A stretch of DNA of 45,904 bases from Nitrospirota bacterium. GTDB lineage: Bacteria; UBA9089; CG2-30-40-21; SBAY01. Below the pieces are notes generated by a model. It was not told where the DNA came from, made no database searches, and saw only the letters and a list, made by a program, of their open reading frames with translations. The translations under genes and the position numbers were made by a program. Of this stretch, positions 5,513 through 9,589 are shown in pieces; position 1 is the first letter of the stretch, and every line of letters starts with the position of its first letter. The DNA is taken from the NCBI GenBank assembly GCA_043816605.1, contig JBDRHR010000102.1, positions 1 to 45,904 of the forward strand, given 5' to 3'.

Positions 5513-5680
5513 GGAGTTCAGGCTTCAGCCTTTCATCTAACGAATGAAACCCTAAAGGGTAAATTCCATTCATTAATAAAGGGTGAATTCCATTCGTTAT
5601 CGGAGTTAACTCTTTAGAGTTTCATTTGGAATTAAGTCTTTAGAGTTTCATTATCCTGGATTTTACCCTTTAGGGTTTCA
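5513..5680. repeat. REP cluster 1 (five full 23-bp copies plus a partial), overlapping the mcrB 3' end
   Basis: Copies at 5513, 5545 (reverse), 5577 (partial), 5602, 5628, 5658; consensus GGANTTN-stem4-TTYA-stem4-TTCA. Confidence 0.9.
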
Positions 5681-7335
5681 TTTAGTGCATTAATAAAGTC
5701 ATCATCATTATTAAATTCATCTTCTTTCTTAATCCTATACACCTTCTGCTCCGAGTCATAGTACTCCCCGTACTCCCCTAATTTCTTTTTTGTATCTTCA
5801 TCAATTTTAGTTTCTTCAATAAACTTCTTTCCAATTACTACCTTTAACTTCCCCAAATCATCATAGAAATACTCCTGTAACAGAGGCACAATCTCGTAAA
5901 ACCAGACAAACCTCAGGGTTTCAACCTTTTTGTCTTTTTCGGCATTTTTCACCTTCAAAAAGTAGCTGTGTCCAATCTGATGGTCTCTATCTCTAAGGAT
6001 TTCTATCCTTTCGTTGAGTTTTTCAAGTAATTCCTTGAGATTGATTTCACTTCTTTCTATTTCTACTTTCACACCTTCCAATTCCTCTGGTTCAGGCATT
6101 AACTCCAAAAATGTAAACCGTCTCCTCAAGGCTACATCTAACAGAGCAATACTCTTATCCGCTGTGTTCATCGTGCCAATAATATAAAGGTTTGGAGGAA
6201 CGCCAAAGGGTTCTTTTGAATACGGAAGCTCAACAATGAGTTTATTGTCTCCTCTAATTCGCTTATCATCTTCGATAAGGGTAATAAGTTCACCAAATAT
6301 CTTTGAGATATTGCCTCGGTTGATTTCATCAATGATGAGAAGATAGTTATTGTTAGGATAATTATTTGCCTCTTCGCAGATTTGCTTGAAGATACCAGGT
6401 CGAACTGGATAGGTAATGTTACCGTTCCCATCTGCTTCAGGCTTTATGCCTTCAACAAACTCCTCATAGGCATAGGATTGGTGGAAGGTGATAAATTTGT
6501 AATTCTTCCATTCCTCAGTAAGTTTATTTGCCCAATATGTCTTTCCAGTTCCTGGTGGACCGTAGAGGATTAAGTTTTTGGAGTGATTAAGTAATTTTTT
6601 TATCTTACAAATTAGAACTCCATTATTCTCTATTCCTTTTGTCCAGTCTCCGTAAAGAAAATTATCCAAATCCCTAAAATCTTTCTGTAAGGGTAAGTCA
6701 GCTATCTCTCTAATATTAGTGAGTAATTCTACATTATCTAAGTAATCTTTTAGTGTTGAGTTAATTTGCTTTGCTTTGATTCTTTCTATGCCGTATCTCT
6801 TTAACCCTTTAATAGTCGCACCATTAACCACAGGATAAACTGTAGGATGAAGAGCATAGAAAATGGGGGATAAGGTTCCAGATTTAAGACCTTTAATTTC
6901 TAACTTGGAAAATTTCTCAACATCTTCATCTAATCCCTTTTTATTTTTCTTCTCAACCAGTGTCCGTAAAAATTCCTGTATATCTTTTTTATTTTCTTCA
7001 GTAGGTTTAAATTTTCTTGTGTCAATAGTGACAAATCCCACTTTGTTTTTCTCCAAGAAACCAACAAGTTCGTTTTTCTCATCACCACCTATGTTTAGTT
7101 TTTTTATGTATCCTGTTTTTGTTTTTTCCGTTCGTTCTCCATCAGAACACCCAAATATTGCATCTAAATCATCTTTTTCAACAATATCCTTTTTAAGAAT
7201 CACTTCTATCAGTTGTCGAATTAAGATACTGGTATTCTTAGCAATCTCTGATATTTTTTCCCATTCACACTGCTTTTTATATCTTTCAGCATCCTCTATT
7301 ATTTTCTTTTTTACCTTTTCAGTTAACTCTACCAT
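5632..7335 (-). CDS. mcrB: McrB-family AAA+ GTPase (type IV restriction) with an unassigned N-terminal domain of about 230 aa
   Basis: GPPGTGKT, ITFHQSYAYEEFVEG, LIIDEINRGN, MNTADKS (NxxD), ALRRRF, IGHSYF. Confidence 0.92.
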   Translation of the reverse strand: MVELTEKVKKKIIEDAERYKKQCEWEKISEIAKNTSILIRQLIEVILKKDIVEKDDLDAIFGCSDGERTEKTKTGYIKKLNIGGDEKNELVGFLEKNKVGFVTIDTRKFKPTEENKKDIQEFLRTLVEKKNKKGLDEDVEKFSKLEIKGLKSGTLSPIFYALHPTVYPVVNGATIKGLKRYGIERIKAKQINSTLKDYLDNVELLTNIREIADLPLQKDFRDLDNFLYGDWTKGIENNGVLICKIKKLLNHSKNLILYGPPGTGKTYWANKLTEEWKNYKFITFHQSYAYEEFVEGIKPEADGNGNITYPVRPGIFKQICEEANNYPNNNYLLIIDEINRGNISKIFGELITLIEDDKRIRGDNKLIVELPYSKEPFGVPPNLYIIGTMNTADKSIALLDVALRRRFTFLELMPEPEELEGVKVEIERSEINLKELLEKLNERIEILRDRDHQIGHSYFLKVKNAEKDKKVETLRFVWFYEIVPLLQEYFYDDLGKLKVVIGKKFIEETKIDEDTKKKLGEYGEYYDSEQKVYRIKKEDEFNNDDDFINALNETLKGKIQDNETLKT

Positions 7336-7358
7336 TTTCTTTACCTCCTATAAATTTT

Positions 7359-7478
7359 TGAAATTCTAAAGAATTAATTCCATTAAACTTGGAATTCACC
7401 CTTTAGGGTTTCATCTCTACTATAGTTATGAAATTCTAAAGAATTAATTCCAGAATGAAATCCCAAAGGATTAACTCC
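7359..7478. repeat. REP cluster 2 (four copies)
   Basis: 7359 (reverse), 7391, 7429 (reverse), 7456 (reverse). Confidence 0.9.
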
Positions 7479-7487
7479 AACTCCATT

Positions 7488-8018
7488 TCAATCCTTCCAA
7501 CTCAGTGAAAAATCAATAATCGGATATGACTCAAAGCAAGACATTATCCATTTCATTCCATATTTTCGCAAATAATACTGAAAACTTGAATATTGCCAGT
7601 CTTCCATTTGTTTGGCATAGCCATGTTTTACCGGATTATGATGAATATAGTTGAAGTGCATCCACCTATCTTTCTCATCTTTTGGACAATAGTCCCAATA
7701 GTTCTGCCAAATTTTTCGCCCACTTTCTTTATCCTCTAAATTCCATTTATGAGAAGCGCTTCCATGTATTTTTTGAATGAGTTTTGGTATATCATTTCCT
7801 TTACTTGTTTTAAATAAAATATGATAGTGATTGTCAAGAATTACCCATGCCTTAATCTTATATCCAAATTTAGAGTAAACATCTTTTAATAAATCTCTTA
7901 ATTCTGATTTGCGTAAGTCATTTGCTATAATTGGTTGTTTTTGATACACACCTACACTCAAGAAATACCAAGTATCATCATAATACAAATGAAGGGGATG
8001 GTGTAATTTCTGAGGCAT
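7488..8018 (-). CDS. REP-associated tyrosine transposase (RAYT / TnpA-REP, HUH Y1 family)
   Basis: AWVILDNHYH (HUH), WQNYWD, NYIHHNPVKHG, W-x-YSS; flanked on both sides by REP copies. Confidence 0.9.
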   Translation of the reverse strand: MPQKLHHPLHLYYDDTWYFLSVGVYQKQPIIANDLRKSELRDLLKDVYSKFGYKIKAWVILDNHYHILFKTSKGNDIPKLIQKIHGSASHKWNLEDKESGRKIWQNYWDYCPKDEKDRWMHFNYIHHNPVKHGYAKQMEDWQYSSFQYYLRKYGMKWIMSCFESYPIIDFSLSWKD

Positions 8019-8031
8019 TTTTACACTCCTT

Positions 8032-8128
8032 TGAAATTCTAAAGAATTAATTCCGGAATGAAGAATGAAATCCTAAAGGATTAACTCCAGAATCTAATCC
8101 TGGATTTTACCCTTTAGGGTTTCATTTA
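8032..8128. repeat. REP cluster 3 (three copies), overlapping the mcrC 3' end
   Basis: 8032 (reverse), 8066 (reverse), 8102. Confidence 0.9.
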
Positions 8129-9407
8129 ACTCATTCCTCAATTCCTCTTTCTCCTTCTTTAAATCCCGATTAAGGTTCACTGTGCAAATGAGGATTTTTC
8201 TATTACCCTCTTTCACAAAATAATCTTTCTTAACTTCTTTTTCCCATTGCGGATAAAGTAAAATAACCTTTGGGCAGTTATGCCTTTGACTATACGCAAA
8301 CATCTGATACATATCCTCTGATGTAACATCTTTTTCAGTTTCCAGCCGCTTATATTTTGTATCAATAATCAATTTACATTCCTTATCGTTATTTCTACTA
8401 ACAAAAAGAATATCTGGCTGAAGATGGAATGCTCCTTCAATACCATTCTTATAAACCAAATATTCCCCTCTTTTCTGAGTGATAATTTCACACTCGTTAT
8501 AATCTGTATTGTCTAAAATTCTCTCCTTTTTAATAAACTCAGCAATAAACTCCTCAAACAATTTATTCATATCAAAAAGCAAGGAGAAGGTTTCTACCTT
8601 ACCGACCGAAAGTTGAATAGAGGAATCACAAATAAATAATTTAGCCAGATTGAATACGGGTTTATACGCATCTATTAATCTTGTAAATGTAAATTTCTTA
8701 CAGTCATTCGAAGAAATCATTTTATCGCTTACATCTGAAAAAATAAAAGCAAGTTGTCGTAAAAGTCGCTTATTCCCCTCACTCTCGGATACAGTTAATA
8801 AACACTGGATGGTGAATTTTAATATCTGATTAAGAAGATTATCCTCTGTGAATTCATCATAGGCAACTAAAAAATAATGTTTGCTTATTGGATGATGTCT
8901 CAATTGTTTTGTGATAAGCCATTTTCCTTTAAGAAAGCCGGTTTTCTCTTCAACCACCTCATACCTTCGATGAATACCTTTTTTCAATAATTCATCAAGA
9001 TTTTTCGCAAAGAGATAAATAAGCACCTCAAAGAAACTATCTCGCTTTGAAGTAAGACTGGCAATTTCTGACTCCTTAATGGTTAATTTCTTAGTATACG
9101 ATAATAAAAAAAGCAGATTTTGGGTAGCAGTTTGTTTCTTCTGTTTATCCTTATCCTCCATCCCATTTTCTTTAAAATCAAGTTTTGGTAATATCTGAAT
9201 GGTTTTATTTCTGCACCTGATTACCCCTACATAAGAAGTTGCTTCAATTTCCTTCCAACCTAAATTAAAAATTGTTGCCTTTTGTTTTTTATTTATGCGG
9301 TCTATCTGATTCTTGTCCGAATCTGTTAATTCTATCTTCTCTTTAGGGTCTGGCGAAAGGTTTTTATATTCATATTTTTTATGCTCAAAAAATGTAATTA
9401 GTTTCAA
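8094..9407 (-). CDS. mcrC: McrC-family PD-(D/E)xK nuclease subunit
   Basis: YVGVI, IQILPK, FDMNKLFEEF, PDIL...IIDTKYK, DMYQMFAY; TTG start. Confidence 0.92.
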   Translation of the reverse strand: MKLITFFEHKKYEYKNLSPDPKEKIELTDSDKNQIDRINKKQKATIFNLGWKEIEATSYVGVIRCRNKTIQILPKLDFKENGMEDKDKQKKQTATQNLLFLLSYTKKLTIKESEIASLTSKRDSFFEVLIYLFAKNLDELLKKGIHRRYEVVEEKTGFLKGKWLITKQLRHHPISKHYFLVAYDEFTEDNLLNQILKFTIQCLLTVSESEGNKRLLRQLAFIFSDVSDKMISSNDCKKFTFTRLIDAYKPVFNLAKLFICDSSIQLSVGKVETFSLLFDMNKLFEEFIAEFIKKERILDNTDYNECEIITQKRGEYLVYKNGIEGAFHLQPDILFVSRNNDKECKLIIDTKYKRLETEKDVTSEDMYQMFAYSQRHNCPKVILLYPQWEKEVKKDYFVKEGNRKILICTVNLNRDLKKEKEELRNELNETLKGKIQD

Positions 9408-9440
9408 GTATCTGCTTCCTTGCTATTAATTTTAATAATG

Positions 9441-9589
9441 TGAAATCCTAAAAGATTAACTCCATGATTAACTTCAGAATGAAATTCTAAAGAATTAACT
9501 CCGAATTCTGGAATTTACCCTTTAGGGTTTCATCTTTTATTGCTCACAAAATCGGATTTCACCCTTTAGGGTTTCACTTTAAGGTTTCA
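9441..9589. repeat. REP cluster 4 (four full copies plus partials)
   Basis: 9441 (reverse), 9480 (reverse), 9510, 9554, partial at 9577. Confidence 0.9.

Follow-up and report, generated by a model that had tools for sequence, protein, structure and literature searches.

A RAYT gene and its REP repeats that probably interrupt an mcrC-mcrB restriction operon in a Nitrospirota bacterium

Introduction

What does it mean when single genes alternate with clusters of one short repeat around a gene for a DNA-cutting enzyme? The stretch of DNA studied here (the window) is an entire contig of 45,904 bases (C102) from the metagenome assembly of a Nitrospirota bacterium, a genome (G000) of 2.62 Mb in 250 contigs that is 93.6% complete and has a guanine-plus-cytosine (GC) content of 37.6%. 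In this window a gene of 176 codons for a RAYT (REP-associated Y1 HUH nuclease/transposase) lies between the restriction genes mcrC and mcrB, and copies of a repetitive extragenic palindrome (REP) occupy the four junctions, J1 to J4, around the three genes (Table 1). RAYTs are Y1 HUH enzymes, and those studied in Escherichia coli and Stenotrophomonas bind to REP hairpins in single-stranded DNA, next to which they cleave and rejoin the strand. An earlier note on this DNA proposed that pairs of REPs carry whole genes here, so that the RAYT might capture, excise or shuffle single-gene defence cassettes in the manner of an integron. As outlined below, the locus is probably a conventional REP/RAYT system (a REPtron), whose RAYT has lodged in a two-gene restriction operon, and the alternation of REPs and genes is a by-product of this.

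A REP family with a conserved hairpin

When the pattern GGAWTTNANNCTTTAGNNTTTCA was matched with up to 3 mismatches, 16 hits were found in the window, every one within 5513-9576, compared to a mean of 0.30 and a maximum of 2 in 100 shuffled sequences. The count of about 16 copies in the earlier note, confined to four junctions within 46 kb, was thus reproduced. Its coordinates and orientations were also correct: the innermost REPs are 5658(+) and 7359(-) around mcrB, and 8102(+) and 9441(-) around mcrC, and +/- doublets lie at 5513/5545 and 7391/7429. Two aspects had been missed. The RAYT itself has REP flanks of the same orientation (-,- on either side), and the copies at 5658 and 8102 form part of the coding sequence at the 3' ends of mcrB and mcrC, respectively. 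Because of this, McrB, with the C-terminus ...NALNETLKGKIQDNETLKT, and McrC, with the C-terminus ...NELNETLKGKIQD, end in an identical REP-encoded tail, NETLKGKIQD. The underlying stretch of 32 identical nucleotides (nt) at the two 3' sites is the longest identity between any two junctions.

The repeat is not limited to this contig. With up to 2 mismatches we found 125 copies in the genome (62 in + and 63 in - orientation), against 1 for a reversed-pattern control, and 111 of these were intergenic according to a crude open reading frame (ORF) map of contigs that are 83% coding. Clusters were counted with up to 3 mismatches (147 matches in the genome, 21 for the reversed control), which resulted in 83 clusters, comprising 42 singlets, 27 doublets and 14 larger groups. 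Almost all doublets (25 of the 27) were inverted, 21 as '+-' and 4 as '-+'. The unit measures 23 nt and consists of a stem of 4-5 bp with a TTTA loop between two fixed arms, GGAWTT (5') and TTTCA (3'). The four core stem pairs are paired in 115-125 of the 125 copies, and the pairs 9:18 and 10:17, which are paired in 115 and 122 copies, respectively, each occur as three Watson-Crick types. Since the stem pairs covary, the hairpin is under constraint, and the identification of the repeat as a REP, suggested earlier, is borne out by its number, intergenic position and covarying hairpin. The arms carry no GTAG/CTAC or CGTC/GACG tag, which is common in described REPs but no strict requirement. A permissive Rfam scan of 4900-10300 returned look-alikes of miRNA precursors on the REP hairpins, with scores of 23.6-31.1 bits against gathering thresholds of 72-100, and these were dismissed as chance matches.

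The same REP is present in related genomes, with 74 copies in G004, 38 in G011, 37 in G008, 674 in G017 and 17 in G001 (controls 0-1). Within our genome, the window is the contig richest in REPs, the next contigs having 8 copies. Stem variants that are rare elsewhere are enriched at the locus, which holds 6 of the genome's 13 copies with a CCC..GGG stem and 4 of the 9 with TTC..GAA, and a '-+' unit of approximately 58 nt recurs at J2, J3 and J4. The enrichment of rare variants and the recurring unit point to local multiplication of the REPs.

The RAYT belongs to this REP family

The RAYT carries its HUH motif in DNHYHILF and the conserved tyrosine in FNYIHHNPVKHG, residues that have a catalytic role in this class of enzymes. 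Its best relative of solved structure is 4ER8, the 'TnpArep' of E. coli (E 1.3e-13), whereas other Y1 transposases, among them 2XM3, 2XMA, 2XO6 and 2FYX, which we take to be IS200/IS605 transposases, scored 1.2e-4 or weaker. In the alignment with 4ER8, HYH is matched to HMH, and the tyrosine of NYIHHNPVKHG to that of DYIYINPVKHG. Together with the Y1_Tnp match (Table 1), this agrees with the earlier naming of the gene as a RAYT. The genome contains 9 Y1_Tnp matches, but the other 8 are at most 27% identical to the RAYT and their contigs lack this REP. The RAYT is single-copy in the genome and is flanked by REPs on both sides, 3 upstream (8032-8124) and 4 downstream (7359-7478). Judged from its sequence and setting, the gene is the single cognate RAYT of the REP family, and activity on these REPs would be expected from its family membership.

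To what extent is this RAYT associated with restriction or other defence genes elsewhere? In metagenomes, 20 loci with RAYT homologues were found at 21-54% identity, two of which (L134 and L143) are flanked by a related REP. The neighbours of six homologue loci (L134, L138, L141, L142, L143 and L019 of genome G011; 10 scanned) were of housekeeping type or matched no family, and included an M48 peptidase, a sugar nucleotidyltransferase, DprA, a PEP-utilising enzyme and HHH_3 proteins; none of the 10 scanned neighbours was a defence gene. The Y1 genes of G004, G008, G011 and G017, as well as ten RAYT-like loci (L020-L029), had no REP of this family, and no close RAYT was found in G004, G008 and G017 despite their 74, 37 and 674 REPs. 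In these three genomes either the RAYT was not assembled or REPs persist without one. One metagenome contig (L150, 372-4497) has a distant RAYT-like gene (30% identity) beside an adaptor-pump pair of efflux genes, which is probably a coincidence.

Closer orthologues of the RAYT, searched for in 25 genomes of the phylum at E 1e-25, were detected only in our genome and in G011, a 62% complete genome from another family of the same order. There, a contig end carries the last 62 RAYT codons with 92% protein identity, and the DNA shows 9 mismatches in 186 aligned bases as counted by eye, thus approximately 95% identity. Directly downstream of it are 2 REPs, followed by a 986-amino-acid PD-(D/E)XK (AddB-like) gene and further REPs; mcrB is not a neighbour, and the similarity to the window stops within the REP array. 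The AddB-like gene, sought in our genome because it might mark a former site of the RAYT, had no match there, although this is weak as evidence. For comparison, the efflux pump encoded next to the locus, of the resistance-nodulation-division (RND) type, is 77-85% identical in protein sequence to orthologues of other families, including that of G009, which belongs to the genus of G011. The RAYT is therefore closer than vertical descent predicts, or the G011 contig was mis-binned. A RAYT with approximately 95% identity and different neighbours in another family hints, at the level of sequence, that the RAYT itself may have moved.

mcrC and mcrB are halves of one operon

The genes on either side of the RAYT were correctly named in the earlier note, since they match AAA_5 (mcrB) and PF10117 (mcrC). 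Both proteins are full length by alignment and have retained their Walker and nuclease-core residues. In McrB, we take GPPGTGKT and LIIDEINR to be the Walker A and Walker B motifs, and GPPGTGKT and DEINR were invariant in an alignment with 8 homologues of 36-45% identity, while the N-terminal 240 amino acids matched no Pfam family. In McrC, the core residues P331-D332, D349 and K351, which presumably form a PD-(D/E)xK motif, were invariant in 9 aligned sequences. By Pfam and motifs, the pair is a candidate type IV restriction system.

To see how such genes are normally arranged, we compared the 80 best McrC loci, using one genome per species. The order was mcrB-mcrC in 62 of them and mcrC-mcrB, as in the window, in 13; in 5 there was no mcrB within reach. 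The closest McrC homologues belong to the 13 mcrC-mcrB loci, and in 10 of these mcrC and mcrB either overlap (by 4-58 nt) or have a spacing of 52-68 nt, with no RAYT in between (L060, L082 and L106 are irregular). In the window the gap is 758 nt and is composed of 3 REPs, the RAYT and 4 REPs. The identity to these homologous operons is only 34-40% for McrC and 36-45% for McrB. By this comparison mcrC and mcrB are halves of one operon and not independent units, and since their adjacency is normal in the subfamily, a single insertion of a RAYT with REPs is more parsimonious than two cassettes. No mcrBC was found in 5 genomes of the same family and 6 of the same order (62-100% complete). A REP-bounded mcrB or mcrC on its own was not found either, the sole other copy being the decayed 5' fragment of mcrC on contig C71 that is described below.

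The RAYT is encoded on the same strand as mcrC and mcrB and is tightly spaced inside a defence operon, which could also mean that the restriction system has taken it over as a functional component, co-transcribed with both genes. Such a role would be in line with published speculation that foreign DNA is the target of RAYTs and REPINs, and a CRISPR-like bait role has been put forward for RAYTs by Bertels et al. 2017 (PMC5581495). However, the association is unique to this locus, as there was no RAYT match in any of the 80 McrC loci and no mcrB or mcrC in any of the 20 loci with RAYT homologues, and in G011 a different gene adjoins the near-identical RAYT. We consider such a recruitment extremely improbable.

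Genes enclosed by REP clusters

Of the 17 stretches that separate neighbouring REP clusters on the same contig, 7 enclose a single ORF, 3 of them at this locus. The other enclosed genes code for a purF-like amidotransferase, an Fe-S/CCG oxidoreductase, a DUF3782/PD-(D/E)XK protein, and toxin-antitoxin (TA) genes or pairs. REPs fill intergenic spaces, which is why their clusters also bracket single genes elsewhere in the genome, housekeeping genes among them. On contig C107 (19819-21271; L157, 320-1772) a module of approximately 240 nt, consisting of a REP doublet and, after it, a perfect TTGACA-17-TATAAT, is duplicated with 94% identity ahead of two different TA pairs, one HicBA-like by eye and the other a small ORF with a PIN protein.

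A second, diverged copy of part of the locus was found on contig C71 (1831-2261, locus L159), where window positions 9019-9502 are matched with 73% identity over 489 nt (blastn). This copy comprises the REP pair, the 5' untranslated region (UTR) and approximately the first 120 codons of mcrC, has decayed with two stops, and is located between a UPF0047 gene on one side and an IS91-type transposase on the other. A MAFFT alignment gave 89% identity for the segment of REP pair, 5' UTR and first codons, and 74-80% deeper in the gene. The divergence of this copy means that REPs and mcrC have long been together.

With these data the proposal can be weighed that mcrB and mcrC are each a single-gene cassette within an inward-facing REP pair, on which the RAYT acts in integron-like fashion. 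It accounts for the innermost +...- REPs at both genes and for the identical 32-nt REP unit at both 3' ends, and the decayed REP pair with the 5' part of mcrC on C71 and the duplicated doublet-plus-promoter module on C107 could be read in the same way. Yet the two genes encode two parts of one enzyme, whose adjacency is the norm in the subfamily (10 of 13), so that the doublets do not appear to carry independent genes. The forward/reverse geometry, which the earlier note pointed out, depends on which copy in a mixed cluster happens to be innermost, and for two genes would arise by chance in 1 in 16 cases. There are 3-5 REPs per junction, in both orientations, and housekeeping genes are REP-bracketed too. 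IS608 transposes by a single-strand Y1 mechanism with both ends on one strand, and by analogy a cassette moved in this way would need ends of the same orientation, which only the RAYT has here. In the available genomes of the same family and order there was no variant arrangement either. Overall, the cassette proposal seems very improbable. REPs fill all the gaps around the RAYT, so the REP-gene-REP pattern is no sign of mobilisable cassettes.

A low-GC island at a variable efflux operon junction

All relevant genes of the locus are on the minus strand, and they are transcribed in the order outer-membrane factor (OEP), HlyD-type adaptor (MFP), DUF5678-like ORF, mcrC, RAYT, mcrB and RND pump. 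The order OEP-MFP-RND was conserved in all 5 related genomes examined, which supports the earlier statement that the block splits an efflux operon between adaptor and pump. The MFP and RND genes overlap in G005 and G013, and are approximately 90 bp apart in G004, approximately 440 bp in G014, 2.4 kb in G009 and 5.07 kb here. The insert in G014 (L049, 6311-6756) contains one ORF of 126 amino acids, and that in G009 (L048, 4630-7071) has ORFs of 96 and 125 amino acids, nucleotidyltransferase/HEPN-like by eye, and an ORF of 201 amino acids. No REP was present at this junction in the five relatives (L048-L052), where we had sought it as a possible empty site. The junction thus varies among relatives, but with inserts that lack REPs, and neither variation in REP-bounded cargo nor an empty site could be shown. 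From these sequences, the MFP|RND junction looks like a REP-independent hot spot for small accessory genes.

In the window, the GC content drops from 43-46% in the flanks to 31-36% over mcrB, the RAYT and mcrC. J4 adjoins a truncated retropepsin-like pseudogene with an in-frame stop, which indicates that older cargo was overwritten. Judged by sequence, this pseudogene and the DUF5678-like ORF (9577-10019) seem to be left over from a small earlier insert with two genes. A search for the missing 3' half of the pseudogene, in three frames of 5040-5640 and among paralogues in the genome, gave nothing convincing, so that insertion of a REP-bounded block into the retropepsin-like gene cannot be shown.

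The alternative that J1-mcrB-RAYT-mcrC-J4 is one mobile or horizontally acquired, REP-bounded element of IS200/IS605-like type, inserted as a block with mcrC and mcrB as passengers, would fit the uniformly low GC content, the REP clusters at both outer ends, the truncation at J4, the failure to find mcrBC in the 11 genomes of the same family or order that were searched, and the near-identical RAYT in a genome of another family. On the other hand, there is a single genomic copy, the island includes non-REP material at either end (5058-5512, 9577-10129), the AddB-like gene and not mcrB comes after the RAYT of G011, and no RAYT match was seen in the 80 McrC loci. The REP family is moreover resident in the lineage, hence the REPs at the ends need no import. 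We regard a block insertion as unlikely.

Support from reads for the assembled order

Two public runs of one sample contained 0.30 and 0.21 of the sampled words, and a third run none. The data of the matching runs consist of short Logan contigs only, and among the 16 of 42 pieces listed none reaches at least 31 nt past both ends of any REP cluster; the gene order is therefore as given by the original assembly. The sides of three 'joints' (5534/5536 to 8062-8065) measure only 21-25 nt and fall within REPs, so that these joints are to be explained by other REP doublets in the community and not by deletions. Such doublets also account for the depth peaks and the loose ends at REP borders. With respect to cassette excision, empty sites and circles, the public reads are neutral, as the contigs are short and the joint sides, of at most 25 nt, lie in repeats, and uncovered parts are uninformative.

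A contig mis-joined at REP clusters, with the RAYT not truly between mcrC and mcrB, could be suspected in a metagenome-assembled genome of 250 contigs, and in the public runs many loose ends begin at REP borders, with none of the 16 listed pieces extending at least 31 nt past both ends of a cluster. However, REPs are only 23 nt long and variable, with no identity between junctions beyond 32 nt, the GC content, strand and local REP variants are coherent over the block, and both mcr frames continue unbroken into the REPs. An assembly artefact is, in our view, quite improbable.

Other features of the window

The coordinates of the locus are listed in Table 1. In a PADLOC analysis there was no match to an McrC model, the RAYT and the DUF5678-like ORF had no match, and McrB matched only the generic 'REase_II', IetA and MkoA P-loop models, which added nothing beyond Pfam. 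A promoter and terminator scan was uninformative: it returned 20 promoter-like sites where 20.2 were expected, and 2 terminator-like sites where the expectation was 3.0. An AAA_14/DUF4143 ATPase is encoded at 14202-15458 (minus strand), upstream of the MacB/efflux genes. Upstream of the RND pump, at 5269-5331, three to four tandem 11-mers (CCGGACGATTG) lie between the arms of a perfect 17-nt inverted repeat, and an 89% identical copy of 5293-5355 is present on contig C235. Another short dispersed repeat, in which CAAAAAA follows three ATCCTGT-like units, occurs at 1894-1928 and 13894-13929, just outside the efflux and MacB block, and also on contigs C5, C39, C55 and C107.

Table 1. Position of genes, REP clusters and the low-GC island in the window.
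Feature	Position	Strand or REP copies	Remarks
Outer-membrane factor (OEP)	11278-12579	-	upstream half of efflux operon
MFP adaptor, HlyD-type	10130-11275	-	assigned by Pfam; upstream half of efflux operon
DUF5678-like ORF	9771-10019	-	22.2 bits, slightly below Pfam cut-off
Retropepsin-like pseudogene	9774 downwards, 9577-9774	-	stop in frame after DTGA (...FLVDTGA); truncated by J4
REP cluster J4	9441-9576	4 copies: 9441-, 9480-, 9510+, 9554+	partial copy after it, to ~9600
mcrC, 437 amino acids	8094-9407	-	Pfam PF10117, E 7e-81; final residues REP-encoded
REP cluster J3	8032-8124	3 copies: 8032-, 8066-, 8102+	8102 within mcrC 3' end
RAYT, 176 amino acids	7488-8018	-	Pfam Y1_Tnp, 1.9e-10
REP cluster J2	7359-7478	4 copies: 7359-, 7391+, 7429-, 7456-	from RAYT stop to mcrB start
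mcrB-like AAA+ NTPase, 567 amino acids	5632-7335	-	Pfam AAA_5, 2e-18; final residues REP-encoded
REP cluster J1	5513-5680	5 copies: 5513+, 5545-, 5602+, 5628+, 5658+	last three overlap mcrB 3' end/stop codon
RND pump, AcrB family, full length	1965-5057	-	Pfam ACR_tran, 1e-267; downstream half of efflux operon
Low-GC island	5058-10129	.	between MFP stop (10130) and RND start (5057)

Discussion

The course of events that we consider probable for a conventional REP/RAYT system would start with an mcrC-mcrB type IV restriction operon in a low-GC island at the variable OEP-MFP-RND junction. The RAYT with its flanking REPs would then have come between the once-coupled mcrC and mcrB, and its arrival would have swapped the last few codons of mcrC, including the stop, for REP-encoded ones, after which REP units would have multiplied locally at all four junctions. 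The REP hairpins may affect read-through of the co-oriented genes.

Several observations weigh against this account. We found no relative with the mcrC-RAYT-mcrB block, nor a RAYT-free version of this very operon, so that the order of events is deduced from homologues of 34-40% identity only. RAYTs are described as immobile (PMC8266576), which leaves the entry into the operon junction unexplained. An identical 32-nt REP unit is fused in frame to the 3' ends of both mcr genes and '-' copies precede both, a regularity at the mcr genes that exceeds simple random accumulation of REPs. The second copy on C71 implies that REPs and mcrC travelled or were duplicated together at least once. In addition, the joins across the REP clusters have no independent confirmation among the 16 of 42 pieces listed, and most described REPs have a GTAG or CGTC tag that is missing here.

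In a bolder alternative, the RAYT with its same-orientation REP flanks would be a live or recently live self-moving unit and not a fixed, domesticated gene. It would have passed between genomes of two families, which would explain the approximately 95% nucleotide identity with different neighbours, and then have inserted where a translationally coupled mcrC and mcrB overlapped. We consider this possible, though doubtful. If the unit is mobile, REP-adjacent DNA may sometimes have been copied along, for example the mcrC part on C71 and the promoter module on C107.

How does the locus compare with known systems? In the REPtron of E. coli (tnpAREP/yafM with flanking BIMEs, bacterial interspersed mosaic elements), as here, a single-copy Y1 HUH gene is bordered on either side by several cognate REPs, and hundreds more are dispersed elsewhere, mostly as inverted intergenic pairs. 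Unlike in E. coli, the REP described here has a short hairpin of 4-5 bp and no 5' GTAG, the gene is located in an accessory restriction operon instead of at a conserved chromosomal site, and its approximately 95% identical copy in another family has other neighbours. Clusters of REPINs (REP doublets forming hairpins) adjoin each RAYT in Pseudomonas fluorescens SBW25 (PMC3116915), and in Marinomonas the REPs accumulate close to tnpAREP, a pattern that the authors attribute to recent arrival followed by local multiplication (PMC8266576). Of the two REPtrons of Marinomonas MWYL1, Ma and Mb, the latter also has a small REP with a perfect palindrome of 5 bp. In contrast to this locus, where REP clusters enter two 3' coding ends, no split flanking operons are reported for the SBW25 and Marinomonas systems. 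Most REPs carry GTAG/CGTC tags (PMC3733652). Apart from this tag, the features of REP/RAYT systems that we tested are all present, and two features of integron-like systems, independent cassette units and one uniformly oriented site per cassette, are absent.

The resemblance to other systems is more limited. IS200/IS605 elements (IS608, ISDra2) likewise have a Y1 HUH gene between subterminal hairpins that share one orientation, comparable to the '-' copies on both sides of the RAYT here, but our gene is single-copy, its protein is nearer to TnpArep, and the hairpin exists in more than 100 copies that have no gene. The likeness to integrons (IntI, attI, attC) is superficial, being that genes in one orientation alternate with folded repeats at a variable spot. 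In contrast to integrons, the locus lacks a tyrosine-recombinase integrase and does not have one site for each cassette (5, 4, 3 and 4 REPs in mixed orientation), and the 'cassettes' are halves of an operon that is contiguous elsewhere, with no array variation seen. With the mcrC-mcrB subfamily of McrBC type IV systems the genes share PF10117 and AAA_5, the Walker motifs, the D...D-x-K core and the C-then-B order, and differ in that they are 758 nt apart and that both C-termini are REP-encoded. Neither RAYT-mobilised gene cassettes nor a RAYT inside mcrBC was described in the literature searched.

These results correct how the locus is to be read: the alternating REP clusters and genes around the RAYT do not constitute a cassette array, and comparison with homologous operons reveals one split operon. 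They also add a REP/RAYT system in a small uncultured phylum, with a very short REP that lacks the GTAG tag, and show that some related genomes hold up to 674 REP copies with no detectable cognate RAYT. In the published view, there is no evidence of mobility for tnpAREP (PMC8266576), and REPtrons are not transposed as a unit (PMC3333891). A RAYT in low-GC accessory DNA, with a near-identical copy elsewhere, fits poorly with the view in PMC8266576, and the locus would be a mild exception to the published immobility of RAYTs.

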